Assembly (NCBI GenBank): GCA_021816695.1
Contig: JAKAXE010000001.1
Span: 67,344 to 131,343, forward strand
Direction of reading: 5' to 3'
Source: a bacterium
GTDB lineage: Bacteria > Chloroflexota > Dormibacteria > Aeolococcales > Bog-877
Length of the DNA stretch: 64,000 nucleotides
Positions within the stretch are counted from its first letter, which is position 1, and every line of letters starts with the position of its first letter. Below, piece after piece: positions 2,084 to 26,661 of the stretch. The notes under the pieces are model-generated. The model was given only the letters and a program-made list of their open reading frames with translations. It was not told the origin of the DNA and did no database searches. The translations under genes and the position numbers were made by a program.

Positions 2084-3252
2084 GAGCTCACCCGAGAGGC
2101 GCCCAGCTGCCACACACAGCCGGCGACCAGGGCAGCCCGCTCGGGGAGCGACCCGAGGTCAGCCCATTCTCCCGGGGCGTGAGCTGAGCCTCCCACGACT
2201 CCGAGCCCATCAAGAGTCCGGACTCCGAGGTCAGCGGTGAAGTTCCCATCGCTTCCGCCTCCCACCGTGACCCCCTGGATCGGAGGCAAGCCGAGCCAGC
2301 TGCCGACCTCCCGGGCCATGGCGAAGAGGCCAGCTGCGGCGGAGGTCTCCAGGGGTGGGCGGTTCGGGCCCCCGCCCAGCTCGAGGGTGGCATCCGGGTG
2401 TCTGGGCCTCAACAGGCGCAGCCCCCGGTCGACCCGCGTGGCCTCCGCTGAGGTGGCGAAGCGGACGTCCACATCCAGCTCAGCCAGCTCCGGCACCACG
2501 TTGACCCGTCCCCCGCCCCGGAACACCGTGGGGGTGACAGTGGTCCCCACCCCCGCGTCGCCGAGGTCCCCCACCGCGTCCACCAACCGCGCCAGCTCCG
2601 CCACCGCATTGACTCCCAGCTCCGGCTCCAATCCCGCGTGCGCCGCTCGGCCATGGAGCCTGAGGCGGTACGTCCCCACCCCCTTCCGGCCGACCTTGAG
2701 GGCGCCCTCGGCCGGAGGCTCGAGGACCAGCACCGCGCTGGTCTCCCGGGCGGCCTGTTCGATCGTCGGCCTGGAGGCCGTGCTTCCCACCTCCTCGTCA
2801 CCGGTGCAGAGCAAGGTCACCTTCCCCGGGGCCTTCCCGTGCTCCGCCACGGTGGCCATCGCCGCTAGCCCCACGACCACTCCCCCCTTCATGTCGAACA
2901 CCCCCGGCCCAGTCATCCGCCGGCCTTCCCTACGCAGCCCGCCGGGGAATGCCCCCACCTCCCAGACGGTGTCCAGGTGGCAGAGGAGGAGCACCGCCGC
3001 GCTGGGGTCCCCCTCCAGGGTCAGGCTCAGTTCGGGCACGCCGCCCCGCACCTCTCGGGAGACCCTCACCCCGGGAACCCAGCGGCTCGCCAGCTCGGAG
3101 ACGAGATCCCCGCATCGGCTGATGGCTCCCGGGTCACCGCTCGGGGATTCCAGTGCCACCAACTGGCCCACGGCATCCGCCCACATCTCACTGCGCTCGT
3201 TCAGCCATGAGCGGAGGCGCGCGGGCGGCAGCGGAGCTTGGATCTGGGTCAC
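2080..3252 (-). CDS. M20-family metallopeptidase / amidohydrolase (ArgE/DapE/aminoacylase-like; candidate N-acyl- or N-succinyl-amino-acid deacylase)
   Basis: Carries HLDTV, the GDEEVGS metal-binding motif and a C-terminal dimerisation region typical of M20 peptidases. Confidence 0.8.
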   Translation of the reverse strand: MTQIQAPLPPARLRSWLNERSEMWADAVGQLVALESPSGDPGAISRCGDLVSELASRWVPGVRVSREVRGGVPELSLTLEGDPSAAVLLLCHLDTVWEVGAFPGGLRREGRRMTGPGVFDMKGGVVVGLAAMATVAEHGKAPGKVTLLCTGDEEVGSTASRPTIEQAARETSAVLVLEPPAEGALKVGRKGVGTYRLRLHGRAAHAGLEPELGVNAVAELARLVDAVGDLGDAGVGTTVTPTVFRGGGRVNVVPELAELDVDVRFATSAEATRVDRGLRLLRPRHPDATLELGGGPNRPPLETSAAAGLFAMAREVGSWLGLPPIQGVTVGGGSDGNFTADLGVRTLDGLGVVGGSAHAPGEWADLGSLPERAALVAGCVWQLGASRVSS

Positions 3253-3494
3253 GGCCCGATTCTATGCCCGGGCGGTCTCCTCAGCGCCCCTGCCGCTCGC
3301 CGGCAGCACCAGGTCCCGGAGAGGGCGCGGCTCCCGGCTCGACCAGGGTCGCCACAGGCCGCTCCGGTTGCGGAGGCGGATGGCCGAACAGGGCTCCCAC
3401 CAGGATCATCAGGCCAGCCGCCTCAGAGCGGAGTCGGGACCCCCGCCAGCTCGCGCTGAGCAGCCAGCGCGCCAGCAGGCCTGAGATCACCGGG

Positions 3495-4160
3495 CTACTT
3501 GCAGACCCACTCCGACGACTCCCCGATGGAGAACATCTTGGCGGCGATGTCGGCCTGCTGGGTGGGGTTCCAGATGTCCGTGCCTCCGTGGCCGTAGAAG
3601 GTGGCGGGCATGAACTGGAAGAGGCCGCTGGCCCCGGAGTACCGATTGACGTCCGTGGGGTCAAGGCCGGACTCGCACTGTGCCACCCCGAGCAGCCAGG
3701 TGTAGGACACGTTGTACTTCTGGGCGGCGGCCCAGATGATCTGCTTGATGGTCCCGATGGGCGGCTCCGGCACCGGCTGCCAGAAGGCATTGCCATAGGG
3801 GAGGGATGGTTGGGGCGGCGGCGGCGGGGTCACCTTGGTCACGGACAGCGGCATCGTGATCTGGTAACCGGTGCTGCTGAGGAGGTTGCGGCCCTGGCCC
3901 GCGACCTGGGCCACCAGCGCCGGGGCGGGGGATTGGGGGCCGACCGCCTCTCCGGTGCTGAGCGCTCCCAGCACTGGGGCCAGCGCCGCCAGGCAGAGGG
4001 CGGCCGCTCCCCACCGCAGCCTCGAGGCCAGCCGGGGCCAAGCTCGGCGCTGCGCCGGCGCCGACGGCGCCAGCGTCAGCTCAAGCGGGGCCGTATATGA
4101 AACCCAGGTACCCTGCGCCATCCTGTATCCATCTGTAGTCGACTCGATCCCACCCGCCAC
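3495..4160 (-). CDS. Secreted lytic transglycosylase (SLT domain)
   Basis: Has the VAQCESGLDPTDVNRYSGASGLFQFMPATF SLT signature and an N-terminal signal-like segment (RLRWGAAALCLAALAPVLGALS). The true start is probably internal, because the ORF overlaps the upstream CHAP gene. Confidence 0.7.
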   Translation of the reverse strand: MAGGIESTTDGYRMAQGTWVSYTAPLELTLAPSAPAQRRAWPRLASRLRWGAAALCLAALAPVLGALSTGEAVGPQSPAPALVAQVAGQGRNLLSSTGYQITMPLSVTKVTPPPPPQPSLPYGNAFWQPVPEPPIGTIKQIIWAAAQKYNVSYTWLLGVAQCESGLDPTDVNRYSGASGLFQFMPATFYGHGGTDIWNPTQQADIAAKMFSIGESSEWVCK

Positions 4161-5049
4161 CCGGGACGCCGTAGAAGTTCATCTCCGAGACCTCGAAGGA
4201 ACCGGGCTTGACCGCCACCACGTAGGCCACGTGACCGTAGCCCCAGCTCTCGCCCGGAACGTCGATGCCCCACACCACGATCGACCCCACCTCGGGGGTC
4301 TGGCCCTCGGCATATCCCGCCGCCGCGGCGTTGGCCCACCACTGGTAGGCGTTGCCACCCCAGGTAACCTTGCGCTGGCTGGCGACCCACCAGGTGCAGT
4401 CGCCGAAGGCGAAGGACCAGCTCCCGGTGCCGACGGCCGGCTGGGGGGTGGTCAGCTCGGCCAGGAGCTGCTGGGAGCGCTGACCCAACTGCGCCTGGGC
4501 GACCATCGACTGGCTCTCGTCAGCCCGCAGTTGCGCGGTGGCGGCAGCCACAACCTGCTGGTCGTGCTTGATTGTCCCCACCAGCTGGGCGACCTGGGAG
4601 GCCACCGCCGACGGGAGGGCGGTGCTGGCCAGGAACTGGGCCAGGTTGGGCGCGGCCAGCGCCTCCGCCACCTGCTGGCTGCCGCTGCCGTCCACGTAGG
4701 CAGTGGACACCAGGTTGGTCAGCGCGACCTGATCTCCCGCCATCTGGCGCTGGAGCGTCGCTGAGGTCGCCTGGTCCGCAGCCAGCTTGGCGTTCAGCTG
4801 CTTCAAATAGCTCTGCTCCGACTCAATCTGGGTCAGGAGCGCCATCACCTGGCTCTGAGACGCCAGGTCGCCCTGGGCTCGGAGCTGGTTCAGAAGCTGG
4901 GTCAGTTGGGCCTGGTCACCGGCGAGTCCCTGCTGGGCGCTGGTGTTCGGACCTGGCCCCAGCACAGCGGAGATCCAGACCAACCCGGCCATCGCCACAG
5001 CAATCGAGACGCGCCCAATGGCTTGGGCTCCGCGCATACGTCCTCCCAC
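4081..5049 (-). CDS. Secreted CHAP-domain peptidoglycan hydrolase with N-terminal coiled-coil region
   Basis: Signal/TM (VSIAVAMAGLVWISAVLG) is followed by a Q/A/L-rich heptad-like region. C-terminal CHAP features are GDCTWWVA...GHVAYVV...LGFIYGP. Confidence 0.75.
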   Translation of the reverse strand: MGGRMRGAQAIGRVSIAVAMAGLVWISAVLGPGPNTSAQQGLAGDQAQLTQLLNQLRAQGDLASQSQVMALLTQIESEQSYLKQLNAKLAADQATSATLQRQMAGDQVALTNLVSTAYVDGSGSQQVAEALAAPNLAQFLASTALPSAVASQVAQLVGTIKHDQQVVAAATAQLRADESQSMVAQAQLGQRSQQLLAELTTPQPAVGTGSWSFAFGDCTWWVASQRKVTWGGNAYQWWANAAAAGYAEGQTPEVGSIVVWGIDVPGESWGYGHVAYVVAVKPGSFEVSEMNFYGVPGGGWDRVDYRWIQDGAGYLGFIYGPA

Positions 5050-5099
5050 ATAGCGCGTGCGTTACGGGGGGGCAAGTTAACCGATAGGTCCCGCCGCGG

Positions 5100-8007: not shown

Positions 8008-9261
8008 TCACGTTGACGCCTGGCCGCCGGCGGACCAGCGGCTCGGACCACGTCCAACACACGGAATCAGAAGCAGCCCAGCTCCCACGTACGAGCCGGC
8101 CATCACCCCGAAGCCGGCGGCGAAGCCGAGGTGCTGGATGATCTGGCCGATAGCCACGATCCAGAGCGACCCGACGCCGTACGAGAGCGCGAAGTAGTAG
8201 CCGAACATCCCGGCCTGGGCCGAGGTGGCGATGCTGTCGCTGACCAGGGCCTGGAGCAGCGGGTTCTCCACGTACGCCACCAGCCCGACGAGCAGAGCCA
8301 GCACCGCCAGGCCGGCGAGCGGCAGAGAGGAAGCCAGGCCGAAGGCCAGGACCGCGACCGCCGAAAGGGCGTAGGCGCCCCACAGCACCGGGATGCGTCC
8401 GAGCCGGTCCGAGAGCGGCCCGCCCAGGATCGGTCCCAGGACCGCCCCCACGAGGACCACATTGAAGATCACCCCCACCGTGGCCTCCGGGAGGTGGACC
8501 CCGTTGCGCAGGTAGAGGGGGATGAAGGCGTTGAGCGTCCCCAGCCCACGACCACCGGCAGCGACCGTGGCCGCAGCCACCCCGAAGATCGCCACCCGGG
8601 GGTTGACCAGCTGGTCACGCCGGATCCGCGGCAGGTGGGGACGCAGGCTCGGTCGGGGGACACCCTTGCCGCGGTCGCCGGGGACGGGAGGGAAGGTGAG
8701 GAGCAAGACGAGACCGAGAAGGAAGAGCGGAATGGCAAGGATGAGGAGGGTTGGCCTCCAACCCAGATCGGCGATCAGCAGGGCTGCCGGAATGGGGATT
8801 ATCAGCGAACCCACGCTCCCCCCGATGGTGGCCACGCTGAGGGCGGTTCCCCGTCGCTCGGGGTACACCCGGGCCGCCACCGAACTACCCACCGGGTGCT
8901 GCTGGCTCGATCCCAAAAGGGCCAGCCCCTGACCCGTCGCAAAGACGGGGTAGGTGGGCGCCACCGCGCCGAGGATGGCGCAGAGCCCCACCACGAGGTT
9001 CTGGCACCCGAGGATCCAGCGCGCGGCCACCCGCTGGCCGACGTACCCGGCACTGGCCTGGGTGAGGCCGCCCACCACCCCGATCACCCCTACGGCCAGC
9101 CCCAGGGTGGCGTAGTTGAGGTGGAAGTCGACCAGGATCGCCGGGTAGGTCAGCGGCAGGAGGCCCGAGTACATGTGCTGGCCGGCGTGCGAGGTCGCCA
9201 CGAGGCCGAGCGCGCGCCGCCGCGCCCGCCTGCCCGCGCCGAGTTCCGCGGCCGCCTCCAC
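8008..9261 (-). CDS. MFS transporter
   Basis: 12-TM pattern with an MFS-like N-terminus (RRALGLVATSHAGQHMYSGLLPL). The track ORF runs to 9381 through an Arg-rich read-through; true start is more likely near 9261 (GTG) or the ATG at 9174. Confidence 0.75.
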   Translation of the reverse strand: MEAAAELGAGRRARRRALGLVATSHAGQHMYSGLLPLTYPAILVDFHLNYATLGLAVGVIGVVGGLTQASAGYVGQRVAARWILGCQNLVVGLCAILGAVAPTYPVFATGQGLALLGSSQQHPVGSSVAARVYPERRGTALSVATIGGSVGSLIIPIPAALLIADLGWRPTLLILAIPLFLLGLVLLLTFPPVPGDRGKGVPRPSLRPHLPRIRRDQLVNPRVAIFGVAAATVAAGGRGLGTLNAFIPLYLRNGVHLPEATVGVIFNVVLVGAVLGPILGGPLSDRLGRIPVLWGAYALSAVAVLAFGLASSLPLAGLAVLALLVGLVAYVENPLLQALVSDSIATSAQAGMFGYYFALSYGVGSLWIVAIGQIIQHLGFAAGFGVMAGSYVGAGLLLIPCVGRGPSRWSAGGQAST

Positions 9262-9280
9262 GCTTGCAGCATACGGAGCG

Positions 9281-9961
9281 TCAGGACGGGGACGGCGGCG
9301 GTGCAGGCCCGTAGACGAACCCGAGGAGGGTCTCAGTCGGACTCCCCGTGGCCCCCGCTGCGACCCCTCTGAGGTCCACATAGGGCGGGGCGGGGCCGGG
9401 AAGCGCCCAGTTGGACTCCGCCACCGTGTACGACCCGTCCGCGCTCACCCCGACCACGAAGGCCACGTGCCCAGGGCCCCGATCTCCGAACACCGCGATC
9501 GCCCCCAGCGCCGGGGAGACGCCGACCGCGTAGCCCGCCGCCGATGCCAGCTCCAGCCACTGTCCCCCATTGCCCCCCAGGAGGCCCTGGGGCGTGTGCC
9601 AGGTGACCAGCCGGCGCGTGGCCACGTACCAGGTGCACTGACCGGTGGAGAACCCCTGGTAGTTGGCGGGGAACGGATCGGGGTGTCCGGTGCAGGCCGA
9701 CGGTTGGACCGCCAGCGCCCCGGGCTCGGGTCCGCACGGAGCCGCCCAGTTTGGAAAGGAGGGCGAACTCGCCAGCACCACCTCTCCCGGCCGCAGGACC
9801 AGCCCCCCAGGATCTGGGAGCAAGCCACCCAGAGCCGGCCACCCGGCAGCCGCCGCGCCAGCGCCCAGCAATCCCACCAGGCTGGCCCCCAGGACCGCTG
9901 GGACCAGGCAGCCCAGGGCCAGAAGGGCACCCATTCCGGACAGCCAGCGCCGGGGACTCAT
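9281..9961 (-). CDS. CHAP-domain cell-wall hydrolase, last gene of the T4SS-like operon (VirB1-like role)
   Basis: C-terminal CHAP features GQCTWYVA...GHVAFVV...LGFVYGP are paralogous to the CHAP protein at 4081-5049. Signal/TM is MGALLALGCLVPAVLGASLVGLLG. ATG at 9961-9959 overlaps the VirB4 stop (ATGA, verified as plus-strand tcat at 9958-9961). Confidence 0.75.
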   Translation of the reverse strand: MSPRRWLSGMGALLALGCLVPAVLGASLVGLLGAGAAAAGWPALGGLLPDPGGLVLRPGEVVLASSPSFPNWAAPCGPEPGALAVQPSACTGHPDPFPANYQGFSTGQCTWYVATRRLVTWHTPQGLLGGNGGQWLELASAAGYAVGVSPALGAIAVFGDRGPGHVAFVVGVSADGSYTVAESNWALPGPAPPYVDLRGVAAGATGSPTETLLGFVYGPAPPPSPS

Positions 9962-12159
9962 GGGGAGTCCGCGGCCAGTTGACCGGTGCTCAGGGCCGGC
10001 CACCACTCTCGAGGAGCGCCCCCTCGGAAGCTGGCGTGCTCATCTCCGGCCAGCACCAGCCCGCAGCCCGGCTCCGCATCTCGGAGGAGCTCGCACTCCG
10101 CGTCGGAGAGCGAGAACGCGCGCCGCACCCCGGGAAGAGCCACCGGCTCCTGGCGGAGGAGCAGCTTGGTATGGCAGTTGCGGATGACCACGTTGCCCAC
10201 GGGCGAGTTGAGGAAGTCCTCGACCACCTGCGAAACCACTAGCAGCCCGGCTCCCAGCTTGCGGATGCGCCGAGCCATGCTCTCCAGGAACCGGGCTCCA
10301 GAGGGAGAGGAGAGCAGGACCTCGGCCTCATCCACGACCACCAGGGTGGGATGCGTGTGCGGGAGCTCGAGGTCCGCCTCCAGATGCCAGAGCACCAGCT
10401 CCATGGCAGTCCCCAGGAGCTCCTCCCGGGCGTGGAGGTGGCGCAGGGAGACCACCAATGCGTCGTCGACGTCGAGTCCGCCGGCGCCGTTGAAGACGCC
10501 TGACCCGGGGCCGGCTGCCTGTCGTTGCAGCCCGGCTGCGAGCTCCCCCTGGCCCGCCTCCTCCAGCTGCTCCAGGACCTCGGAGAGGCCGGCTCTCATG
10601 GGCTGGAGCCGAAGGGCGGTCAGAGCGGCGAGCCTCAGGGCCTCCAGGGAGCTCCTCGAGGTGGCCGACCGGCTCGACGCCAGCAGCCGGCCCAGCAGAG
10701 GAAGTGCCCGGTCGACCCGCCGCTCAGGCTCCTGACCAGGTGGCCCGAGTACATTCAGCCCGCGCTCGTCGGTCGCGCCCAGTTCCAGGCACCGGGCTCC
10801 GAGCAGCGCCCCCAGCTTCAGGTACTCCCCGGCGGGGTCCAGGCACCGTAGACGGCAACCTTGTAGGAAGAGGCGGGCCGCGAGCAGTTTGGAGGTGAAG
10901 GACTTGCCCCCACCGGAGGTCCCCAGGACCAGGATGTTGCGGTTGGGATTGGACTCGGCCAGGGGATCGACGGTCACCAGCTCCCTTGTGCTGGGGCTGG
11001 GTCCGAGGAGCACCCCGTTCCGCGCGTCCAACGTGGCCCGCAGGAAGGGGATCGCCGTGGCGGTGGCTGCGGTCGTCATGTCCCGGGACCAGCCGAGGGG
11101 GTCCACACCCAGCGGCAGCGTGGATCGCCATCCGTCCGCCTGGCGGTTGAACAGCGGAATTGGGGTGCACCCGAGCTCGATGAGGGTGTTCACCACCTGC
11201 TCCCAGCCCAGCTCCATCTCTGCCTGGCTGGATCCCTCCACCGTGATGCAGGTCACCAGCCGCATGAGCCGGTCCTCCTCCAGTAGGACCCGCTCCTCGA
11301 GGGCCAGCGCGTCCTCGAGTGCGGCCCGCGTGCCGGCATCCGGGCGGCGACCCTGGCGCCGGTCCACCTCGAGCCCGGTCTCGAAGGTGCGAATCCGTCG
11401 GCGCAGGTGGCTCAGACTGTGCACCTTGGGCACCGGGTACAGGTGCTGGGCCATCCGGATGGGAGCTGGGGTGGCCAGGACCAGGGGGGCCAGCCACCCC
11501 AGCTGCAGACGGCGGGGGAAGCCGCGCACGACCAGGCTGCGGACCACCCGGTCCGAGAGCTCCAAGCGGTCCGGCCTCACTGTGGCCGTGTCTGGCGCCA
11601 GCCAGCTGGCGAAGCTGGCGGTGGGGCGGCCGCTCCGCCCCCCGGTCAGCTCCTGGAGGATGGACAGCCAATCCCCGTCCTCAAGGGGACGGGGGCGCAG
11701 CCCCGGACCGCTCAAGGCTGCCGCGACCGCTCTCCGGCGCTGGTCCAGCTCGTACGTGCCGCGAGGGCGCACTTGCCCCGGCAGCGCCCCCCGCAGGCTC
11801 GCCGGGGAGTCGTCCCAGATCACTGCCAGGTGTCGGCGAAGGTGCACCTGGCCACTGGCCATGAGCCCCGCCGAGTAGTCGGCGTCGGCGCGCCCGATCG
11901 TGGTCTGCGCCGGTTGAGCTGAGGCGGCCAGGGGCCGGGAGATGGTGTAGAGGGAGACGGGCCCGGAGAGGGTTGAGAGTGCTCGCCAGTAGCGCCTCCA
12001 GACCAACTGCCGCTCGGCGCCGGAGCGCAGCAGGAGGTTCAGGGCGGCCAGTTCCAGCCCGACCCGGCGGCGCCCGTCCCGGAGGCTGGCCACGCCGCCC
12101 TCCAGGTAGGCGACGTCGATGAGGTCCAGGGTGGATCCGACCCGCGAGGGCAGCCTCAT
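9958..12159 (-). CDS. VirB4/TrbE/TcpF-like type IV secretion ATPase
   Basis: Walker A (NILVLGTSGGGKSFTSKLL) and Walker B-like (HPTLVVVDEAEVLL) motifs, ~730 aa. Start ATG at 12159-12157 forms an ATGA with the stop of the upstream small gene. The first ~150 aa of the 883-aa track ORF are rejected as Arg/Pro-rich read-through overprinting that small gene. Confidence 0.85.
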   Translation of the reverse strand: MRLPSRVGSTLDLIDVAYLEGGVASLRDGRRRVGLELAALNLLLRSGAERQLVWRRYWRALSTLSGPVSLYTISRPLAASAQPAQTTIGRADADYSAGLMASGQVHLRRHLAVIWDDSPASLRGALPGQVRPRGTYELDQRRRAVAAALSGPGLRPRPLEDGDWLSILQELTGGRSGRPTASFASWLAPDTATVRPDRLELSDRVVRSLVVRGFPRRLQLGWLAPLVLATPAPIRMAQHLYPVPKVHSLSHLRRRIRTFETGLEVDRRQGRRPDAGTRAALEDALALEERVLLEEDRLMRLVTCITVEGSSQAEMELGWEQVVNTLIELGCTPIPLFNRQADGWRSTLPLGVDPLGWSRDMTTAATATAIPFLRATLDARNGVLLGPSPSTRELVTVDPLAESNPNRNILVLGTSGGGKSFTSKLLAARLFLQGCRLRCLDPAGEYLKLGALLGARCLELGATDERGLNVLGPPGQEPERRVDRALPLLGRLLASSRSATSRSSLEALRLAALTALRLQPMRAGLSEVLEQLEEAGQGELAAGLQRQAAGPGSGVFNGAGGLDVDDALVVSLRHLHAREELLGTAMELVLWHLEADLELPHTHPTLVVVDEAEVLLSSPSGARFLESMARRIRKLGAGLLVVSQVVEDFLNSPVGNVVIRNCHTKLLLRQEPVALPGVRRAFSLSDAECELLRDAEPGCGLVLAGDEHASFRGGAPREWWPALSTGQLAADSP

Positions 12160-12554
12160 TGGCAGGAGGTGGCTCCCGAGGGCATGGTCCAGGAGATGGG
12201 CGAGGTCTCCGCACCGTCGACGTCGCGGAACTCCGCACGCGAACTCACCAGGTCCGGATGGCTCAGCCGCCTGCGCTGGGCCCGGAACCGCGCCGCGTCC
12301 AGGAGGTAGGCATCGAGCCGGCGGCCTCGGCGGCTGCCGAAGCCCAGAACGACGCAGCCGGCCGCCCACGGCACGGCCCCGGTCAGGGTGGCGTCCAGGC
12401 CGCAATGGGCGTGGATCAGGATCATCGGCAGGACGGCCGCTCCGCTGAGCCAGCCCAGCTGTGGGGTGGTCAGCCCGCCCCAGCGGCTGGGCACGTCGGA
12501 GATGGGTTGCGGTACTTCGGCCTCCATCATGTTCGCCTGGTTTGGTCCCGCCAA
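12156..12554 (-). CDS. VirB3/PrgI/TcpE-like small membrane protein (candidate)
   Basis: 132 aa with two adjacent TM helices (LGWLSGAAVLPMILIHAHCGL, TGAVPWAAGCVVLGF). Sits immediately upstream of, and ATGA-coupled to, the VirB4-like gene, which is the canonical VirB3 position in T4SS operons. Confidence 0.5.
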   Translation of the reverse strand: MAGPNQANMMEAEVPQPISDVPSRWGGLTTPQLGWLSGAAVLPMILIHAHCGLDATLTGAVPWAAGCVVLGFGSRRGRRLDAYLLDAARFRAQRRRLSHPDLVSSRAEFRDVDGAETSPISWTMPSGATSCQ

Positions 12555-14650
12555 CGGCCGGGCTGGGGCTGAAGCCTGCCGCGGCGCAGGGAGTTGAGGT
12601 AGGCCACATCCAGGCTATGGACCGCCGGACCTCCCGCGGCGGCGTACCTGGTGCCGAGGTCGTGGAGGGCCTCTCCCAACTCCGGGCCTTCGGCCAGGGA
12701 CTTGATCGCCGCGAGGTCTCTGGGGGTGAGCCCGGTCAGCCGGACGAGCTCCCGCTGGCGTCCCCCATCCCACAGGAGCTGGCGGCCGAGAAACTGCTCT
12801 CTCGTCTCCCGTCCGTCGACCGCCGGCCACCCACCGCCGGCTCCTGGGACCGCACTCTCGAGCCTGGTGGCGAGGTCCTCCTCTGGCCTCCCGGGCAGTC
12901 CCAGGGCGTGGGCGGCCCGCCCACCCCAGCGGGAGCCATAGCGCCGAGCCTGGGGGATGGCGGTGGTGGCCGCCAGAAGTGAGCCGCCGAGCACCGTACC
13001 CACAGACAGCTCAGCCAGGGCTCTTACCCGGCGGGTGGTGGACATCTCGCCCCGGCTGATTCGTCCCGGCACCTCGACCATGAGGAAGACCGTCACGGCG
13101 GCCAGCAGACACTTGGCGAACTGGTCCCCGGGGTTCCCGCTCCCCACCTCGGCCAGCAGGCCGCCCTGGGCCGCGGCGCAGCTCGAGTGCGTGGTGGGGG
13201 AGATGAAGGGGCAGGACCCGTGGGCAGCCACCGGGGCCAAGCCGGACACGGTGGAGACCACCGCCACGAACGCCAGGAAGATGAGGGTCTGGACCACCAC
13301 CACGGCCGAGAGCGACGCGACCGTGGCCCAGTAGCGGTTGAAGAGGGTGCGGCCCCCCGGCAGCGCCAGCGCCACGAAGGCCAGGCTGGAGCAGGCGGCC
13401 AGGAGCGAGAGGACGATGAATCGGGCCAGGTAGGTCAGCGCCAGCCACAGGCCGAGCCCGGTGAGGGCGGTGAAGGCCACCATCCCCATCAGCCCATCGG
13501 GGACGTCGTAGCCGTTGCGCCCGTGGGGCCCGACCCCGGCCCAGACGTCGGTGAAGGTGGGCGTCGTCCCCCAGTAGATGTCCGCATAGCGGCAATCGGC
13601 AGGGCTCTGGCCGTCTCCCGCCCGAGGCTCACCCGGTAGGGGAAGGACCCCCAACTGGAGGGACCCGATGGTGGAGCTGCCGCTGCCCTCCAGGCAGTTC
13701 TGGCCCTGGTTGTTGTTGACCTGGTTGTCGGTGTTGGTGCAGAGGGGCTGGCCGGGGGATGCATCGCCGCGGTCGCAGTTGGCGTCATGGAGCGGGGGGC
13801 CGAAATAGTTCTCGCTGCGGTCCAGGACCTCCTTGGTGAAGTCGGGGCTGGACACCCCGATGCAGTGCGACTGCGTGAAGGACCGGTCCATCCAGGGGTC
13901 GACCAGGACCTGCTGGCGCGGGCTCGGGCCCGGGAGCGAGAGATGGATGCCCGGGTGGATGATGGGACTGTCCTCCGGGCAGTAAGCGGTGACTGCGAGG
14001 ACGGTCATCATGTCCAGCGGGGCGGTCCCCGAGCCGCCCAGCCGGTGGAAGGTGGCCTCCAGAATGCCCTGGGACACCCAGCTCCCCATGTCGATGACGC
14101 GTCCCGCCAGGTGCAGTGGGAGCCCGGCCCCCAGGACTGCAGCGGCGATCAGGCAGGGCACGATGCCGGCTCTGAGATTCAGCTGCTGCCCGGCCATGAA
14201 GAGCGACACCTGGAGAGCGAAGGCGACCACGATCAGCGCCAGGGACAGCGGCTCAAGGACCGCGTTCATCTCCTGGACCCAGGGGATGCACCCGGCAGGA
14301 CCGCACTGGTGCGCCGGCTCACCCAGGCTCCCGTCGTAGTTGTCCACCACCGGGTTGGTGCCCACCAGGGTGGTGATCAGGTGCCAGGGGCCCGAGGTCA
14401 CCGCCCCGGTCAGGGGGTCGATGTGGGCCGGGTCAGGACTCCCGTCGAGGCTGCCCATGATGGCCACCGGCCCGGAGACGAACGCATCGATCACGTAGCA
14501 GAAGGGATCCGTGATCCCCCCGCACTGCTGGCTGTCGCTCCCGGCGGAGGCTGCCGCCGCGGGGGGAGTCGGGGTGGGCTGGGCGAGGGTTGCCGGAGCG
14601 CTCCCGGCGGAGAGCAGGTGCCCGGCCAGGACGACCACGGCAGCGGACGG
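12527..14650 (-). CDS. VirB6/TrbL/TcpH-like polytopic T4SS membrane protein with Cys-rich extracytoplasmic regions (candidate)
   Basis: Signal-like start (AAVVVLAGHLLSAGSAPATLA) and at least 6 TM helices. Cys pairs sit in predicted external loops (QQCGGITDPFCYV, HQCGPAGCIPW, NCDRGD...PLCTNT). The track ORF runs to 15103, but that N-terminus overprints the pilin-like gene and is rejected. Exact start near 14650 is unresolved (GTG at 14638?). Confidence 0.5.
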   Translation of the reverse strand, partial: PSAAVVVLAGHLLSAGSAPATLAQPTPTPPAAAASAGSDSQQCGGITDPFCYVIDAFVSGPVAIMGSLDGSPDPAHIDPLTGAVTSGPWHLITTLVGTNPVVDNYDGSLGEPAHQCGPAGCIPWVQEMNAVLEPLSLALIVVAFALQVSLFMAGQQLNLRAGIVPCLIAAAVLGAGLPLHLAGRVIDMGSWVSQGILEATFHRLGGSGTAPLDMMTVLAVTAYCPEDSPIIHPGIHLSLPGPSPRQQVLVDPWMDRSFTQSHCIGVSSPDFTKEVLDRSENYFGPPLHDANCDRGDASPGQPLCTNTDNQVNNNQGQNCLEGSGSSTIGSLQLGVLPLPGEPRAGDGQSPADCRYADIYWGTTPTFTDVWAGVGPHGRNGYDVPDGLMGMVAFTALTGLGLWLALTYLARFIVLSLLAACSSLAFVALALPGGRTLFNRYWATVASLSAVVVVQTLIFLAFVAVVSTVSGLAPVAAHGSCPFISPTTHSSCAAAQGGLLAEVGSGNPGDQFAKCLLAAVTVFLMVEVPGRISRGEMSTTRRVRALAELSVGTVLGGSLLAATTAIPQARRYGSRWGGRAAHALGLPGRPEEDLATRLESAVPGAGGGWPAVDGRETREQFLGRQLLWDGGRQRELVRLTGLTPRDLAAIKSLAEGPELGEALHDLGTRYAAAGGPAVHSLDVAYLNSLRRGRLQPQPGRWRDQTRRT

Positions 14651-14655
14651 CCGCC

Positions 14656-14943
14656 TCAGGGGCCGCTCGCGGAACAGGTGGCGGTGGCACAGGCGGTGTT
14701 GCTGCCGGTCAGCCCCTCGACGAAGGTCAGGATGGCTCCTTCGTTCACCAGCAGGAGCACGCCCAGGAGGACGGTCACCAGGCCCTGGATGGCGGCCGCC
14801 CGGCGCTGGCTGTTGTCTAGCGAGGTCATGTAGCGGATAGCCGCGAAGCTGAGGCACAGGACCGCTACCGCCCCCAGGGCCAGGGTGGTGACCGTGTGGA
14901 TGAGGTTGTTGAGCCCGGTCGCGAAGGTCGCCAGCTCCGTCAA
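14656..14943 (-). CDS. VirB2/TrbC-like pilin candidate (95 aa, two-TM hairpin)
   Basis: TTG start at 14943-14941. Two hydrophobic helices (HTVTTLALGAVAVLCLSFAAI, IQGLVTVLLGVLLLV) and a short Cys-containing tail. Sits between VirD4 and VirB6-like genes, with its stop at 14658-14656 directly abutting the VirB6-like start. Confidence 0.45.
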   Translation of the reverse strand: MTELATFATGLNNLIHTVTTLALGAVAVLCLSFAAIRYMTSLDNSQRRAAAIQGLVTVLLGVLLLVNEGAILTFVEGLTGSNTACATATCSASGP

Positions 14944-16493
14944 CGAAGCTCACCCCGGGGCTGAGCCCAGGCGATCGGACGCGGCCCATCTGCGATGGCG
15001 ATGGGCCGCCCCTTGGCCGGTCGGGGCATGCGCTCAAGGTCCGCCCCTGCGCCGGCCGCCGCTCGCATCCTGCGGTCGCCATACCAGGGAAGCTGGCGAA
15101 CAAGTGCCGGGTGGTCGCTGCCCCGAAGGATCAGGGCTCGCCCGCGCCGGAGGCGCCTGATCTCATCCGGCGGCAGATGCGGGTGGGCCTGTACGGGGTG
15201 GCCGCCCCCCGCGGAGTGCAGGGTGGCCGAGCCAACCAGACGGCTGGCCCGTTCCAGCAGGTCTACCTCCGAGATGCCGGGCAGGAGGAGCTTCGTCCGG
15301 CAGTTGGCCCAGAGTGCGGTCACGGCGTCGGCCCCGTAGAGGGTCGAGATGGACGCGACGTCTTGGGCCAGCAGCACCAGTCGCACCCCCTGGGTGCGGC
15401 CCAGCTGCACCAACGACGGCAGCTCGGGCAGGGTCGTCAGCTGGGCGAACTCGTCCAGGACGAAGAGCACGGGGAGCGCCGGCGGGCTGGCATACACCGC
15501 CCGCCAGCAGGCGGAAAGCAAGGCGCTCAGCAGTCCCCGCACCAGGGGAGCGTCGGTGGGGCTGACCACGCAGTAGAGGCTGTTCAGCTGACCGCTCGCC
15601 AAAGAGCGCGGATCGAAGGTGCTCCGGGAGGTGGTCCGAGCCACCTGATCGCTGCCGAACACCCCCAATTTAGACACCAGGGTGGCGACCACCCCCATGG
15701 CCGTGCGGTCCCCGCCGCTCAGTGCGCCCTGGACCAGCTGCCGGGCCAGCGGATGGCTGAGCTCCTCGACCACCTCCTCCGCCGGGACTTGCTGCAGTAG
15801 GGCCAGGAGGTCACTCAGGGTCAGACCTGAAGCGGCGGCCTCCACCAGCAGCCCGTGCAGCAGCTGAAGCGCCAGGTCGTGCCAGAACGGTTCACGCTCC
15901 GGCGGGCGGCCGAGAAGGAAGCCGGCGCTGCGCAGCGCGTCGTCCGAGCTGGAGATGGCGCTGATGGGGTTCCAGCCATCCCCGGGCTCCATGAGGGGGG
16001 CGAAGACGGCGGCTCGGCCTCGCCGCTCCCGGGCCATCAGGGTCCGGGCCAGCAGCTCCCCCTTGGGGTCCGTGACCACCACCGGGCCGGGCCACTCGAG
16101 GATCGCGGGAATCGCCAGCGCGCTGGACTTCCCCGACCCGGTGGGGCCCAGCACCAACAGATGCTCGTCCTCCGGCAGTCGGACCGTCACCGGCCCGATC
16201 CGTCCCAAGCGGACGCGTGCCCCACCCCCATGCCAGAGCCGGCGGAGCTCAAGGAGGCGGGCGGTGCGTGCCCCCCCCAGCGTCCCGGGGCGAAGGGAGG
16301 AGCGTGGACGGCCGAGCCAGATGAGCGCCGCAGCGGCCAACACCACCCCGAGGGTGGCAGCCAGGCCGGTCAGCCGCGTCCCCGTTGGTGGGCCGCCCAT
16401 GACCCCCTCGCGCATCGCGCCGGCCACCACCGCCGCTCCCACCACCGCGGCCGGCAGCAGCAGCCAGAGCAACTCCTCCTGCCTCTTCTCCAC
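14940..16493 (-). CDS. VirD4/TraG/TraD-family type IV coupling protein (T4CP)
   Basis: Two N-terminal TM helices are followed by Walker A (HLLVLGPTGSGKSS), VTDPKGE and Walker B (VLFVLDEFAQL) motifs, 517 aa. Confidence 0.85.
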   Translation of the reverse strand: MEKRQEELLWLLLPAAVVGAAVVAGAMREGVMGGPPTGTRLTGLAATLGVVLAAAALIWLGRPRSSLRPGTLGGARTARLLELRRLWHGGGARVRLGRIGPVTVRLPEDEHLLVLGPTGSGKSSALAIPAILEWPGPVVVTDPKGELLARTLMARERRGRAAVFAPLMEPGDGWNPISAISSSDDALRSAGFLLGRPPEREPFWHDLALQLLHGLLVEAAASGLTLSDLLALLQQVPAEEVVEELSHPLARQLVQGALSGGDRTAMGVVATLVSKLGVFGSDQVARTTSRSTFDPRSLASGQLNSLYCVVSPTDAPLVRGLLSALLSACWRAVYASPPALPVLFVLDEFAQLTTLPELPSLVQLGRTQGVRLVLLAQDVASISTLYGADAVTALWANCRTKLLLPGISEVDLLERASRLVGSATLHSAGGGHPVQAHPHLPPDEIRRLRRGRALILRGSDHPALVRQLPWYGDRRMRAAAGAGADLERMPRPAKGRPIAIADGPRPIAWAQPRGELR

Positions 16494-16577
16494 CGCCCGG
16501 TGAGTCCGGTCAGCTCCCTCCGGGGGGCGCAGCTCGGGTCTGCGACGGTGCCGTCGCCAGGTGCGCCCGGGCCGTTA

Positions 16578-16645
16578 CAGGAATTTGCCGGACTGCTTCA
16601 GGAACTTGCACAAGCGGGCCCACTCCGGGACCTAGACTGCGCCAG
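16578..16645. promoter_or_regulatory. Divergent promoter region with two AGGAAyTTGC direct repeats and a TAGACT -10-like box 7 nt upstream of a leaderless-looking ATG
   Basis: CAGGAATTTGC at 16578-16588 and CAGGAACTTGC at 16599-16609 are 10/11 identical and spaced 21 bp. TAGACT lies at 16633-16638 and the receiver-gene ATG at 16646. The region is locally AT-richer than its surroundings. Confidence 0.3.
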
Positions 16646-17119
16646 ATGCCCCGTTCTCCCCTCGCCCCCACCCGTCACCAGGGGGCGAGGACCATTCTGG
16701 TCGCTGACCGAGACCTCCGGTCCCGCACCGCCACGTCCGCGATCTTGCGCCGTCTGGGATTCGAGGTGGCCGAGGCGGAGTCGCCCCGCTCGGCACTCGC
16801 CCAGGCCCGCTCCGGACCCTACTCCTGCGCCATCCTTGACCTGAACATCTCGGAGGCCGGCGCCTTCGATCTCTGCCGCCGGCTGCTCTCGGCTCCGGGC
16901 TGGAGCTGGACCCCGGTGATCTTCACCAGCTCGCGCCCCCCCGAGCCCGAGCAGAGGGACACGCTCCAGCAGGGCGGATTCACGTTCCTGCTCAAGCCGT
17001 TCCGCTCCGGGCAGCTCCTCTCAGCCGTGGGCGATGCCCTGGCCGCCACCACGCCGTTGCGTGAATCCCGGCCCGATCGGAGGCGGGCGCTCTCCACCGT
17101 CGAGGCCGCCACCGCCTGA
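16646..17119 (+). CDS. Single-domain CheY-like response-regulator receiver protein
   Basis: ILVADRD (acidic pocket), phospho-acceptor context AILDLN, conserved T/S and LLKPF lysine. There is no output domain. Confidence 0.75.
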   Translation: MPRSPLAPTRHQGARTILVADRDLRSRTATSAILRRLGFEVAEAESPRSALAQARSGPYSCAILDLNISEAGAFDLCRRLLSAPGWSWTPVIFTSSRPPEPEQRDTLQQGGFTFLLKPFRSGQLLSAVGDALAATTPLRESRPDRRRALSTVEAATA

Positions 17120-21662: not shown

Positions 21663-21965
21663 TAGCCCCCCACCAGCTGGGAATGGTGCAGGTGGCGCTG
21701 GTGTTCGGTCCCAGCCGAGCGGTTGACTGGTTGGGACGTCGTCACCGGCCCCGGTCTGCCGGTGCCATGAGTGTGTCTCCCAGCGGGCCCGGACGGTCAA
21801 CGGATTTGGGTGATCGCTCGGACGAAAACGTGCAGTGCGCGGGGACCGGCGGTTGAGTGAGGTTAGGGATCTCGCGGCGGTTGGCCCGCTCCACCACTCC
21901 CAGCGGCGCCTCCGCTCCTCGCCGGCAGACGCCCGCCCGGTGGATCTGCCAGTCTAGAGGCTCGG

Positions 21966-22510
21966 TAATGAGCAGCATGCCGCCTTTCGAGGAGCGCCGG
22001 GAGCTCCCGGTAGAGCCCTCCCAGATGCCTTACCTCCGGCCGCCCACCCCACGGGCGAACTGGAGGTTCACCGGGCTGGCGCTCGGGGGGCTAGGCCTGC
22101 TGGCCGTCCTCCGGTTGGTCGTCTCCCACCCGGCGCCCGCCCCCTCCCATGCCTCGCCGCAGGCTGCGGTCGCCGGCTACCTCAATGCCGCCGTCGCCGG
22201 CTCCCAGGCCGGTCTGGAGTCGTACCTGGCCCCCAGCGACCGTCAGGGGGCCGCTGCCATGCTCAGCGCTCTCCGCGCCGACCGGGTGCGGCTGGTCTCC
22301 CCCTCGATCGGTCCGACAAGCGTCGAGGGGGCCACCGCCCAGGTGGAGGTGGCGCTGGAGGTCTGCTATCGGAAATCCTCCTCGGCCCCGTACACCTGCG
22401 AGCTTCTGAGCCACGAGCCGCTGGGACTCTCCTCGGAGATCCTGTGCCAGGACCTCGCCGGGCGCTGGTACGTAACGACCCTTCTGAAGCCGTCGCCGCT
22501 GACCGGCTAA
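21966..22510 (+). CDS. Hypothetical membrane-anchored protein
   Basis: ATG at 21966 (MSSMPPFEE...), a single TM (FTGLALGGLGLLAVLRLVV) and a soluble domain of ordinary composition. The track ORF starts earlier at 21857. Confidence 0.4.
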
Positions 22511-24605: not shown

Positions 24606-25483
24606 TCCGGCAGAGGCAAGTCGCAGATGGCCGCCGCCCCGAAGAGGCCGGGGCCGGTGTGGAGGGCGATCACCGGGGTGAGGCTCAGCTGCTCCACCCC
24701 GTCCACCCCGAACCGCCCGCGCAACGCCTCCACCAGCGGCTCCATGGTGGAGGCGGCATCCCCGCAGAAGGCGGCCAGCCGCAACGGAACCTCACGCGGC
24801 ATCTGCTCATAGAGAGAGTCGACCACTGTCCGCAGGGCGCGCCTCGTGCCCTGGACCAGGCCGAGCCGGCGGACATCGCCGCCGACGAAGGCGAAGACCG
24901 GGCGAACGCGCAGCAGGTCACTGCCCCTGCCCGCCAGCGCCGGCACCCTCCCGGACCGCACCAAAAAGCGCATCGTCTCCAGCGCGGCGATGACCCGGGC
25001 CGAGGCCGCCAGGCGGGCCACGTGGCCCACCACCTGCTCCAGCTCCAGGCCGGCCGCGCAGCCGGCGGCGGCGGCCTCGGCGACCAGGGTGAACCCGGCG
25101 GCGGCGGTGCCGGTGTCCATCACCTCCACCCGCCTATCCGGCTGCTCCTCGCGCAGCATCTCCGCCGCCACCCGGGCCGAGCGCTCCATGGTCGAGAAGC
25201 CACCGGGGATTGTGAGACAGAGCACGCTGTCCCCCGCCGCCGCCCGAAAGGCCTTGAGGTAGTCGCCGGGGCTCGGGGAGCTGCTGGTGGGGAGTGGTCC
25301 CGCCGCCCGCAGCATGGTGTACAGCTCCTCGCTGGAGATGTCCACACCATCGCGGAGGCTGCGTCCGTCCACCGTGATGGACATGGGCACGACCGTCACC
25401 TGGGGAGCCCGCGCCAGCTCCGGGGGCAGGCAGGCGCCGCTATCCACCACCAGAGCGGTCCTCGAGGTCCTCCCGGCGGTCAC
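24602..25483 (-). CDS. DegV-family fatty-acid-binding protein
   Basis: DegV pattern (LVVDSGACLP...VTVVPMSITVDG...). Probable GTG start at 25483-25481 giving a GTGA overlap with the upstream glycosyltransferase stop. The track ORF extends to 25519. Confidence 0.75.
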   Translation of the reverse strand: MTAGRTSRTALVVDSGACLPPELARAPQVTVVPMSITVDGRSLRDGVDISSEELYTMLRAAGPLPTSSSPSPGDYLKAFRAAAGDSVLCLTIPGGFSTMERSARVAAEMLREEQPDRRVEVMDTGTAAAGFTLVAEAAAAGCAAGLELEQVVGHVARLAASARVIAALETMRFLVRSGRVPALAGRGSDLLRVRPVFAFVGGDVRRLGLVQGTRRALRTVVDSLYEQMPREVPLRLAAFCGDAASTMEPLVEALRGRFGVDGVEQLSLTPVIALHTGPGLFGAAAICDLPLPE

Positions 25484-26661
25484 TCGCTCCCCGGCGGCGT
25501 TTCCAGCTCCCTCATGCAATCTCGATAGATTGCCAGAAGGCGCTCGATCATCGGTTCCATGCCGTGACGCTGGAGAGCCCGCTGGCGGGCCGCTTCCCCC
25601 AGGGTGGCGGCCCGCCCCGGATCCGATGCCAGCTGGCCGAGCTGCTCCCCCACTGAAGCCGCCAGGCGACTGGGGTCGATCGCTATCCCCCCTTCAGCCG
25701 CCACCTCCAGCCCACCCTCCGGAGTGGCGAGCACGGCGCAGCCGCTGGCCATGGCCTCCAGCAGCGAGATAGACAGACCCTCCGCGGTGGAGGGCAGGCA
25801 GAAGACATCGACCTCCTGCCAGAAGGCCACTCGGGCGTCGGCGCCCACCAGCTGGCCGCGGTAGCTGACCCGGGGGTCGAGGGCCGCCGCCCTTCGGACC
25901 AGCGGCGACAGGGTGCCGGATCCGGCGATCACCAACCGGGCACCCGGCGCCAGGGGGGCCGCGGTGAAACCCTCCAGCAGCGCACCTATCCCCTTCTCCG
26001 GGTCCAGACGGCCCAGGTAGCCGACGACCAGCTCGCCCGGCGAGCGGCGCTGACGACCTCCCTGGGGAGGGTGGAAGACGTCCACATCCACGGCGTTGGG
26101 CACGACCACGACCCGCTCGGTCCCGGCCCCCAGCCGCAGCAGCCGCTGCCGGTGCCCCTCGCTGAACACCACCAGCCGCTGGTAGGCGCCGAGCCGAGAG
26201 AGCCAGAAACGGTGCAGCTGGCGCATCACCCAGCCCCGGGCGGTGCCCTCAGCAGCGAAGGGCAGGTGGAAGGTGGCCACGGTGGCGGAGCCGTGCCGGC
26301 GGGCCAGGCGACCCACCCAGCCGTCCGCGAGGGTGAAGCTCAAGGAGCAGTGGGTCACCTGAGGCCGCTGGAGGGCGATGGCCTCCGCCATCCGGCGGCG
26401 GAAGCCCGGACGGGGGATGGTGACGGTCTTGAAGCGCAGGGTGGGCCAGGATGTCGCCATCTGTGGATCCACCGGCACCTGGGGGCCGTCCTCGGCGGCG
26501 TGGTGCAGGTAGACGGTGCAGCCCCGGCGCTGCAACCCCTGGGCCACCTGTTCGCTGTAGCTGCTGAGGCCGTCCGCCCGCCGCCCTGCGGCATGCCCGA
26601 GGAGGGCTACCCGCAGCCCGCCCTCAGGCTGGTCCGAGGTCACGCAGGCGCCCCCTCTCAA
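25480..26661 (-). CDS. GT4-family glycosyltransferase (PimA-like mannosyltransferase candidate)
   Basis: GT-B fold with the EX7E motif region (EGLSISLLEAMASGCAVLATPEGG). Gene order after a PatA/HtrB-like acyltransferase matches the actinobacterial acyltransferase-pimA arrangement. Confidence 0.75.
   Translation of the reverse strand: MRGGACVTSDQPEGGLRVALLGHAAGRRADGLSSYSEQVAQGLQRRGCTVYLHHAAEDGPQVPVDPQMATSWPTLRFKTVTIPRPGFRRRMAEAIALQRPQVTHCSLSFTLADGWVGRLARRHGSATVATFHLPFAAEGTARGWVMRQLHRFWLSRLGAYQRLVVFSEGHRQRLLRLGAGTERVVVVPNAVDVDVFHPPQGGRQRRSPGELVVGYLGRLDPEKGIGALLEGFTAAPLAPGARLVIAGSGTLSPLVRRAAALDPRVSYRGQLVGADARVAFWQEVDVFCLPSTAEGLSISLLEAMASGCAVLATPEGGLEVAAEGGIAIDPSRLAASVGEQLGQLASDPGRAATLGEAARQRALQRHGMEPMIERLLAIYRDCMRELETPPGSE

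Follow-up and report, generated by a model that had tools for sequence, protein, structure and literature searches.

A compact type IV secretion locus, very probably domesticated, at one conserved chromosomal site in Candidatus Dormibacterota

We analysed a 64-kb stretch of contig JAKAXE010000001.1 (GenBank assembly GCA_021816695.1), hereafter the window, and describe here a cluster of six genes which appears to encode a type IV secretion system (T4SS) of Candidatus Dormibacterota. The genes are consecutive on the minus strand (window 9281-16493), tightly packed and translationally coupled, as seen from the list of open reading frames (ORFs) and from direct reading of the junctions. In the order of transcription they are:

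14940..16493, minus strand: VirD4-type coupling protein (type IV coupling protein, T4CP), 517 aa, GTG start
14656..14943, minus strand: VirB2-like pilin, 95 aa, TTG start
12527..14638, minus strand: VirB6/TrbL-like polytopic membrane protein, 703 aa, GTG start, 15 Cys
12156..12530, minus strand: PrgI/VirB3-like small membrane protein, 124 aa, ATG start
9958..12159, minus strand: VirB4 ATPase, 733 aa
9281..9961, minus strand: CHAP peptidoglycan hydrolase (VirB1 analogue), predicted to be secreted or membrane-anchored, 226 aa

The VirD4 stop codon and the TTG start of the pilin gene overlap in a TTGA (14943-14940), and an 18-nt gap separates the pilin stop from the GTG start of the VirB6-like gene. 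Further downstream, ATGA overlaps join the VirB6-like gene to the PrgI-like gene (12530-12527), the PrgI-like gene to VirB4 (12159-12156) and VirB4 to the CHAP gene (9961-9958). The PrgI-like gene has such an overlap on both sides; its preferred start is the ATG at 12530, the TTG at 12554 given in the ORF list being less likely. A preliminary description, made from the DNA letters, had placed six minus-strand ORFs at these positions, with ATGA at 12156-12159 and 9958-9961 and an overlap between VirD4 and the pilin gene, all of which was confirmed by direct reading. The identities that it gave to the genes (VirD4, pilin-like, VirB6-like, VirB3-like, VirB4 and CHAP) were upheld by profile searches. 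As judged from these sequences, the six genes probably constitute a single operon, predicted to encode a complete minimal T4SS apparatus of the monoderm type (similar to mating-pair-formation class FATA, MPF-FATA).

Both ATPases were assigned to T4SS families. The VirD4 protein matched Pfam T4SS-DNA_transf (6.5e-41), TrwB_AAD_bind (2.9e-27) and TraG-D_C (6.1e-20), and an NCBIfam family of the CD1115 type (2.9e-35). It has the classical arrangement of two N-terminal transmembrane (TM) helices, followed by a Walker A motif (GPTGSGKS, residue 116) and a Walker B motif (LFVLDE, residue 343). VirB4 matched the NCBIfam CD1110 family (1.3e-48) and VirB4_CagE (1.4e-15), Pfam P-loop_TraG/AAA_10, and the profile of PDB entry 4AG5, the C-terminal domain of VirB4 (3.9e-40). 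Its Walker A (GTSGGGKS, 413) and Walker B (LVVVDE, 606) motifs are both intact, and a full-length alignment places the N-terminal domain within VirB4 itself in Dormibacterota. Weak partial NCBIfam matches were also observed, of CedB to VirD4 (0.0054) and of CedD to the P-loop region of VirB4 (4.3e-8).

The pilin has two TM helices with a basic loop between them and a C-terminal tail bearing C-x4-C, and about 12 residues precede the first helix. It matched Pfam TrbC (0.031) and the NCBIfam Mbov_0395 pilin-like family (1.7e-4), and many of its orthologues carry precomputed matches to the Pfam family T4SS_pilin (PF18895). Its AlphaFold2 model is a helix-loop-helix hairpin (H2-40/H45-78, pLDDT 69) for which Foldseek returned no match, and comparison with an Actinomadura pilin gave a weak hhalign result (42.6%). 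The 703-aa VirB6-like protein matched no Pfam or NCBIfam family, and a homologue search found its relatives confined to Dormibacterota. Its TM3-TM6 core nevertheless aligned with a TrbL_3 (VirB6-family) protein of Actinomadura (hhalign 95.6%, E 1.3e-8, residues 364-559). The protein has about six TM helices and two large predicted ectodomains rich in Cys (residues 36-122 and 183-381); its C-terminal domain (about 601-695) is helical and cytoplasmic. Twelve Cys are invariant among 27 sequences, and conservation reaches 0.84-0.85 in the ectodomains against 0.57-0.59 in the cytoplasmic tail.

The PrgI-like gene lies immediately upstream of VirB4 in all loci. When aligned as a family, its orthologues matched Patescibacteria PrgI (hhalign 91.7%, E 7.8e-7), with which they have an N-terminal VPQxIS motif in common, and Actinomadura PrgI (75.9%). 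The last gene of the operon encodes its only wall hydrolase, a CHAP protein (Pfam CHAP 1.5e-16) with catalytic Cys108 and His165 intact and a predicted hydrophobic signal or anchor at the N-terminus.

We scanned one genome per GTDB species with the VirB4 alignment as query, and searched the proteins of the window against the resulting loci using tblastn. Among 36 species-representative Dormibacterota loci, whose VirB4 identities span 41-94%, the gene order and the flanks were identical in 36/36. The common order is PlsY-fumC-hyp-PBP1A-RR(divergent)-[VirD4-pilin-VirB6-PrgI-VirB4-CHAP]-(MFS)-UbiA-hemE-CHAP2-SLT-M20-enolase-like, where hyp is a hypothetical gene, RR a response regulator, MFS a major facilitator superfamily transporter and CHAP2 a second CHAP protein. 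A divergent Dormibacterota-like lineage (L079 and P0125, 41% identity) has the order PrgI-VirB4-(M23)-CHAP-MFS...hemE-RR-CHAP2-SLT-M20. Loci found through VirB4 necessarily hold VirB4 and cannot show empty sites, and therefore a second scan was anchored on PBP1A, using metagenome contigs and independent of the T4SS. It yielded 19 contigs with the orthologous fumC-hyp-PBP1A context. All of the informative ones, i.e. those with at least 1.5 kb downstream (16/16), continue into the response regulator and VirD4, and the complete six-gene cluster is present in 11/11 contigs whose downstream sequence reaches 9-10 kb or more. None of the 16 informative PBP1A-anchored metagenome loci was an empty site. 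The preliminary description had named hemE and PBP1A as housekeeping genes flanking the cluster. The flanks are indeed housekeeping, and PBP1A is one of them, yet the divergent response-regulator gene sits between it and VirD4; hemE is not adjacent, as the MFS gene, a 78-aa ORF and UbiA lie between it and CHAP.

Across distant genomes, the median identities of the T4SS proteins were 85% for the pilin, 67% for the VirB6-like protein, 66% for CHAP, 62% for VirD4, 47% for VirB4 and 43% for PrgI, and those of the neighbours 76% (fumC), 65% (PBP1A), 59% (hemE) and 49% (UbiA). The pilin is the most conserved gene of the whole neighbourhood, and from locus to locus the T4SS genes diverge in parallel with the housekeeping genes that flank them. 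The ratio of nonsynonymous to synonymous substitution rates (dN/dS), calculated pairwise against the six closest genomes, was 0-0.09 for the pilin, 0.07-0.15 for CHAP, 0.11-0.22 for the VirB6-like gene, 0.11-0.28 for VirD4, 0.14-0.37 for VirB4 and 0.22-0.46 for PrgI, with values of 0.04-0.22 for the neighbours. The six genes are thus under purifying selection comparable to that on housekeeping genes. Their base composition is that of the host: the GC content of the window is 66-73% with no anomaly over the cluster, and GC content at third codon positions (GC3) of the six genes, 0.82-0.86, is the same as in their neighbours.

The window contains no tRNA gene, and no relaxase, integrase or Rep domain was found in its Pfam-scanned ORFs, about ten of which have no Pfam match of any kind. 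Att-like direct repeats were not detected in it either; the matches obtained were short, imperfect, at chance level and inside coding sequence. The Replic_Relax proteins of related elements matched nothing in the window, nor in any of 40 Dormibacterota loci. In the related clusters of Actinomadura and of P0269, an unassigned metagenome contig, a Replic_Relax gene stands beside VirB4, and this contrast fits the loss of a DNA-processing module on domestication.

Homologues of VirB4 at 46-94% identity all bear the label Candidatus Dormibacteria/Dormibacterota, and the hits that rank after them fall to 36% or less. An exhaustive search with a hidden Markov model (HMM) collected 9,514 relatives, in which the Dormibacterota representatives scored 1200, 802 and 708 bits and were followed, at 378 bits, by a Patescibacteria protein. 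The latter is the best full-length match beyond Dormibacterota, and is encoded in a PrgI-VirB4-M23 cluster adjoining dnaN and dnaA. For the ATPase domain alone Actinomycetota are closer, with 36% versus 27% identity. Neighbour-joining (NJ) bootstraps, using 20-state and Dayhoff-6 coding of 529 ATPase-domain columns from 163 sequences, recovered Dormibacterota VirB4 as monophyletic in 100/100 replicates. Support for the sister group was 47-61% for P0269, 31-34% for an Actinomycetota group and 1-2% for Patescibacteria; as this leaves the sister group unsettled, we claim neither a Patescibacteria nor an Actinomycetota origin. The species scan also brought up about 40 genomes of Altiarchaeota, with a few other archaea (L038-L078), that encode a VirB4 relative at 24-29% identity and have exact scan motifs of the SQVVEDFL / VLGTSGxGK type in common. 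Going by these sequences, Altiarchaeota may have a T4SS/Ced-like ATPase that is widespread and possibly chromosomal.

Because the cluster occupies the same chromosomal site in 36 genomes and 16 PBP1A loci, has a host-like composition and is under purifying selection, we consider it very probable that it is a domesticated T4SS, that is, a fixed and vertically inherited chromosomal locus of Candidatus Dormibacterota and not a conjugative element. The preliminary description had noted that no relaxase, Rep, integrase, tRNA or repeat boundary lay within 64 kb, had called this unusual for an integrative and conjugative element (ICE), and had entertained both a domesticated T4SS and an element with its DNA-processing module elsewhere. 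Its first statement agrees with the Pfam, tRNA and direct-repeat scans, and the synteny comparison that it had proposed supports domestication by showing the cluster at the same site everywhere examined; since the cluster is not variably present, the ICE framing was not borne out. It is very unlikely that the six genes are the mating-pore module of an ICE, or its recent remnant, with relaxase, oriT and integrase beyond the window. The gene set does match MPF-FATA modules (CD1110/CD1115 of the Clostridioides conjugative transposon (CTn) elements; Mycoplasma ICE families), and the nearest relatives outside Dormibacterota reside in elements bearing Replic_Relax and FtsK genes. An ICE would, however, be hard to reconcile with one site and one set of flanks in 36 species genomes and 16/16 PBP1A-anchored loci, with host-like GC3 and housekeeping-level purifying selection, with T4SS genes whose divergence tracks that of the flanking housekeeping genes, with a Dormibacterota VirB4 that is monophyletic in 100/100 bootstraps, and with the lack of att repeats, tRNA and integrase. 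That the locus is a non-functional, decaying relic, as the missing relaxase and the lack of a recognisable VirB8-like component might suggest, has a negligible probability and is refuted by the selection data: none of the six ORFs is disrupted in dozens of genomes whose synonymous sites have diverged to saturation, dN/dS remains well under 1, the catalytic motifs are intact, and the coupled gene junctions and upstream motifs are conserved.

How a domesticated apparatus of this kind might be assembled, in which direction it might transport and what its substrate might be can be proposed; for the likely mechanism we go by the established roles of the families. The CHAP hydrolase would open the peptidoglycan locally, and the PrgI/VirB3-like protein, VirB4 and the VirB6-like protein would form a membrane translocon, which the disulfide-rich ectodomains of the VirB6-like protein may extend through the wall. 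VirB4 would power extraction of the VirB2-like pilin and its polymerisation into a pilus or conduit, and VirD4 would recruit a cytoplasmic substrate and feed it outward. As no relaxase is linked to the cluster, this substrate would not be a cognate mobile element. Our best guess is a relaxase-independent transfer of macromolecules between Dormibacterota cells. Exchange of DNA among kin in the manner of the archaeal Ced/Ted systems is ranked first, tentatively and at not quite an even chance, and transport of protein or other cargo is ranked second, as a somewhat less probable option. The conserved VirD4 within the operon argues for export of a cytoplasmic substrate. The pilin and the VirB6 ectodomains are exposed and yet nearly invariant, which points to a conserved partner (self or kin), or to tight constraints on structure, more than to an arms race with prey or hosts.

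Two other functions have to be weighed against such transfer between Dormibacterota cells. The locus could encode a translocator of protein or other non-DNA cargo, for contact-dependent delivery of effectors or for acquisition of material from neighbouring cells, along the lines proposed for the essential T4SS of epibiotic Patescibacteria or for the bacteria-killing T4SS of Xanthomonas. The Patescibacteria set of parts matches, with PrgI, VirB4, VirB6, a VirB2-like pilin, a hydrolase downstream of virB4 and no relaxase (PMC12102498); the best full-length VirB4 match beyond Dormibacterota is a Patescibacteria protein from a PrgI-VirB4-M23 cluster that adjoins dnaA, both systems have the N-terminal PrgI motif, and effector translocators use coupling proteins. 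On the other hand, the neighbourhood consists of conserved housekeeping genes with no variable effector- or immunity-like genes nearby, the pilin and the ectodomains are extremely conserved compared with the pilin arrays of Patescibacteria, which average 25% identity (PMC12102498), Dormibacterota are described as free-living soil bacteria (PMC10608941), and the NJ trees do not place their VirB4 with that of Patescibacteria. On balance we regard this reading as rather unlikely. A DNA-uptake (competence) machine like Helicobacter ComB or Ced/Ted, in which a pilus captures DNA that VirB4 and VirB6 import, seems more doubtful still. It would agree with a chromosomal, relaxase-less system conserved across a lineage, with the presence of the VirB2/VirB6/VirB4 triad that defines Ced/Ted (PMC9905601) and with the weak NCBIfam similarity to CedB and CedD. 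A machine for uptake alone is disfavoured, however, because ComB and Ced/Ted function without VirD4 (PMC12857230; PMC9905601); in the present operon VirD4 comes first, is coupled to the pilin gene and is conserved to the same degree as PBP1A, and there is no membership of a Ced family at the sequence level.

Several points weigh against our interpretation of the locus as a complete, domesticated export system. A conserved coupling protein does not tell a DNA substrate from a protein substrate, and the analogy with Ced is weakened by the lack of VirD4 in the known DNA-import T4SSs (ComB, Ced). Two of the small proteins fall just short of their Pfam families, the pilin scoring 24.2 bits (3.5e-5) against the cut-off of 26.6 for T4SS_pilin PF18895, and the PrgI-like protein 26.1 bits (1.3e-5) against 27 for PrgI. 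The structure model of the VirB6-like protein is poor (pLDDT 49), and fold searches gave no match. Neither the six proteins nor the flanking ORFs had a Pfam or NCBIfam match to a VirB8-like component (PrgL/TcpC/TraM fold), the unannotated neighbours not having been searched by fold. The negative result for relaxases covers the window and, for the Replic_Relax proteins, 40 loci; the rest of the genomes, which was not searched, may hold an unlinked relaxase and oriT. Finally, universality across the phylum rests on the smaller PBP1A-anchored sample.

Some loci differ in detail from the common order. The MFS gene downstream of CHAP was considered as a seventh member of the operon and rejected, since about half of the Dormibacterota loci lack it at this place (19/36 with good coverage), and it is therefore not core. 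Its longest ORF in the window (8008-9381) overlaps the 3' end of CHAP by about 100 nt, and the true start may be a GTG further on, near 9261. In L079 the CHAP stop is overlapped by 4 nt at the start of the MFS gene. An extra gap of about 0.6-0.8 kb lies between VirB4 and CHAP in L030 and in L103/L104, and L079 carries a Peptidase_M23 gene (3086-3718) between these two genes. In a complete 2.49-Mb Dormibacterota chromosome (L017, OY969577.1) the T4SS locus is found at 91-114 kb, some 100 kb into the record. If the record starts at dnaA, the locus would be origin-proximal, a position that has been reported for many Patescibacteria T4SS loci. Three loci with full Dormibacterota synteny are labelled Acidiferrales (L021), Micrarchaeaceae archaeon (L033) and Nanopelagicaceae (L034), and are probably mis-binned or mis-classified contigs of metagenome-assembled genomes.

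Upstream of VirD4 lie a possible control region and a divergently transcribed gene:

16494..16645, no strand assigned: candidate control region that separates VirD4 from the divergent response-regulator gene, with two phylum-conserved non-coding motifs
16646..17119, plus strand: response regulator, a stand-alone receiver domain (Pfam Response_reg 2.5e-15) without an output domain

The response-regulator gene adjoins VirD4 in 32/36 genome loci and in all informative metagenome loci, and its dN/dS among close relatives is 0.04; it is a possible regulator of the T4SS operon. The two motifs were obtained from an alignment of 33 orthologous intergenic regions. Motif 1 is CAGTCTAG (16639-16632, minus strand), with CTAGACTG as its plus-strand reading. 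It is invariant, lies about 7 nt upstream of the response-regulator ATG (16646), and contains TAGACT, a hexamer of the TAnnnT type. CTAGACTG resembles a TAnnnT-type -10 element, which would fit a leaderless transcript. Leaderless transcripts are common in Actinobacteria. Motif 2, TTCCTG-N-GTCCGGCAA-N-CTGTAAC (16604-16574), is roughly 30 nt long and is located 80-110 nt upstream of the VirD4 start. Both are candidate promoter or operator elements. Scans across the operon detected no sigma-70 consensus promoter and no intrinsic terminator, and a search of Rfam gave no match.

On the CHAP side the flank comprises the MFS transporter, a UbiA prenyltransferase, hemE, a PcsB-like CHAP protein, an SLT/Rpf-like protein, an M20 peptidase and an enolase-superfamily enzyme. 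On the VirD4 side are the response regulator, PBP1A, MerR, a split transketolase, fumC, PlsY, DegV and glycosyl-/acyl-transferases of the PIM (phosphatidylinositol mannoside) type. With the PcsB-like CHAP and SLT proteins on one side and PBP1A on the other, the T4SS lies within a conserved cell-wall gene neighbourhood. The PcsB-like protein, which combines a coiled coil with CHAP (4081-5061), adjoins the SLT/Rpf-like transglycosylase (3495-4178) on the minus strand, and in almost every locus the pair is found again three genes beyond the downstream end of the T4SS. The CHAP domain of the PcsB-like protein is 40-44% identical to that of the CHAP protein of the operon. This pair was considered as part of the T4SS and rejected in view of the PcsB-like architecture and the intervening hemE and UbiA genes, which point to housekeeping wall enzymes. 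Between PBP1A and a conserved hypothetical gene (21857-22510), the segment 19490-21662 carries MerR and a transketolase split into separate genes for its N- and C-terminal halves. By tblastn, MerR and the two halves were found at this position in 0/36 related genome loci, and the segment looks like a strain- or lineage-specific insertion of 2.3 kb beside the conserved block. The PIM-type pair, a GT4 glycosyltransferase and a homologue of lipid-A-type acyltransferases (25480-27616), is kept upstream of the block in metagenome loci and is followed by the operon for respiratory nitrate reductase NarGHJ (within 27457-33781). The remainder of the window carries metabolic genes, among them those for NarGHJ, acetyl-CoA synthetase, aconitase and transaldolase.

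The T4SSs of monoderm bacteria are viewed almost entirely as conjugation machines of mobile elements. A December 2025 review regards Patescibacteria as unique among monoderms in their dependence on a T4SS and in that they possibly make VirB2 pili (PMC12857230). Our searches of the full-text literature found no description of a T4SS, of conjugation or of a relaxase in Dormibacterota. The locus would represent a second bacterial lineage with a compact, pilin-bearing and relaxase-less T4SS fixed in the core chromosome, the host being a free-living and as yet uncultured lineage of high abundance in soil. It would be a concrete new case of a host adopting conjugation machinery, and the epibiosis-centred explanation of the Patescibacteria system can now be tested by comparison. 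It draws attention to a process of Dormibacterota, between cells or at the cell envelope, that has not been studied. The set of six genes also offers structural biologists an attractive minimal system, having one invariant pilin and a VirB6 ectodomain rich in disulfides. A more speculative idea, which we hold to be improbable, combines a pilus-forming bacterial counterpart of Ced/Ted, spread throughout the lineage and independent of a relaxase, that exchanges chromosomal DNA among kin in nutrient-poor soils with a possible ancestry shared with the Patescibacteria T4SS. If the ancestry is indeed shared, the machine of the candidate phyla radiation (CPR) would descend from that of a free-living ancestor within the Chloroflexota/Dormibacterota/CPR portion of the Terrabacteria, and would not have been acquired for epibiosis.

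The same minimal list of parts is known from the 'minimal' Gram-positive T4SS model and from the type-IVC systems of Streptococcus. The conjugative MPF-FATA systems (C. difficile CTn CD1110/CD1115; pCF10 Prg/Pcf; pIP501) resemble the Dormibacterota cluster in having VirD4, VirB4, VirB6-like and VirB3/PrgI-like proteins and a CHAP-containing VirB1 analogue, with no outer-membrane core, and the best NCBIfam matches of our two ATPases are CD1110 and CD1115. They differ in residing on plasmids or ICEs that have a relaxase and oriT and are variably present. They also normally possess a VirB8-like protein (PrgL/TcpC) and no VirB2 pilin (PMC12857230); in the Dormibacterota system a pilin is present and no VirB8-like match was obtained. 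Clusters of Actinomycetota, such as that of Actinomadura sp. SCN-SB (L083), encode TrbC/T4SS_pilin, TrbL_3 (VirB6), PrgI, VirB4, a T4CP-like ATPase and a wall hydrolase; they have the highest identity in the ATPase domain (36%), and the TM core of their VirB6 is detectably homologous. Unlike the Dormibacterota locus, they carry Replic_Relax and DNA methylase genes and so look like mobile elements, their VirB4 is without the N-terminal roughly 170 residues found in Dormibacterota, their hydrolase is NlpC/P60 and not CHAP, and the gene order differs.

The closest described parallels are the archaeal Ced/Ted systems and the T4SS of Patescibacteria. The Ced/Ted systems (Beltran et al. 2023, PMC9905601) are likewise domesticated conjugation machinery on the chromosome of a whole archaeal lineage, with a VirB2-like pilin, a VirB6-like channel, a VirB4-like ATPase and no relaxase. 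The Ced pilin is apparently unprocessed, and the Dormibacterota pilin similarly has about 12 residues ahead of TM1. In contrast to the Dormibacterota cluster, Ced/Ted are archaeal, import DNA, and include neither VirD4 nor a wall hydrolase; beyond the weak CedB and CedD matches, our proteins showed no membership of CedA, CedA1, CedB or TedA/B/C, and the resemblance is functional and architectural only.

The other of the two parallels is the chromosomal T4SS of Patescibacteria/CPR (Quinonero-Coronel et al. 2025, PMC12102498), which according to PMC12857230 was shown to be essential in Southlakia epibionticum. Both are monoderm-type, MPF-FATA-related, chromosomal and lineage-wide systems without an associated relaxase, and both comprise PrgI/VirB3, VirB4, VirB6, VirB2-like pilins (PF18895/PF04956) and a wall hydrolase downstream of virB4. 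The order of VirB4 followed by M23 recurs in the divergent Dormibacterota lineage L079, and a large M23 gene (9846-12518) directly follows VirB4 in the Patescibacteria locus L081. The ATPase-domain NJ trees group the two at 1-2% support only. A TrsD-like protein associated with VirB4 belongs to the description of the Patescibacteria system; in Dormibacterota the N-terminal domain is part of VirB4. In Patescibacteria the t4cp gene is usually far from virB4 (148/5,713 near), whereas the Dormibacterota VirD4 is in the operon and coupled. Divergent pilin arrays stand against a single, almost invariant pilin, and the Dormibacterota VirB6-like protein, at 703 aa, is distinguished by lineage-specific Cys-rich ectodomains. 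The hosts differ as well, being reduced epibionts in one case and a free-living soil lineage in the other.

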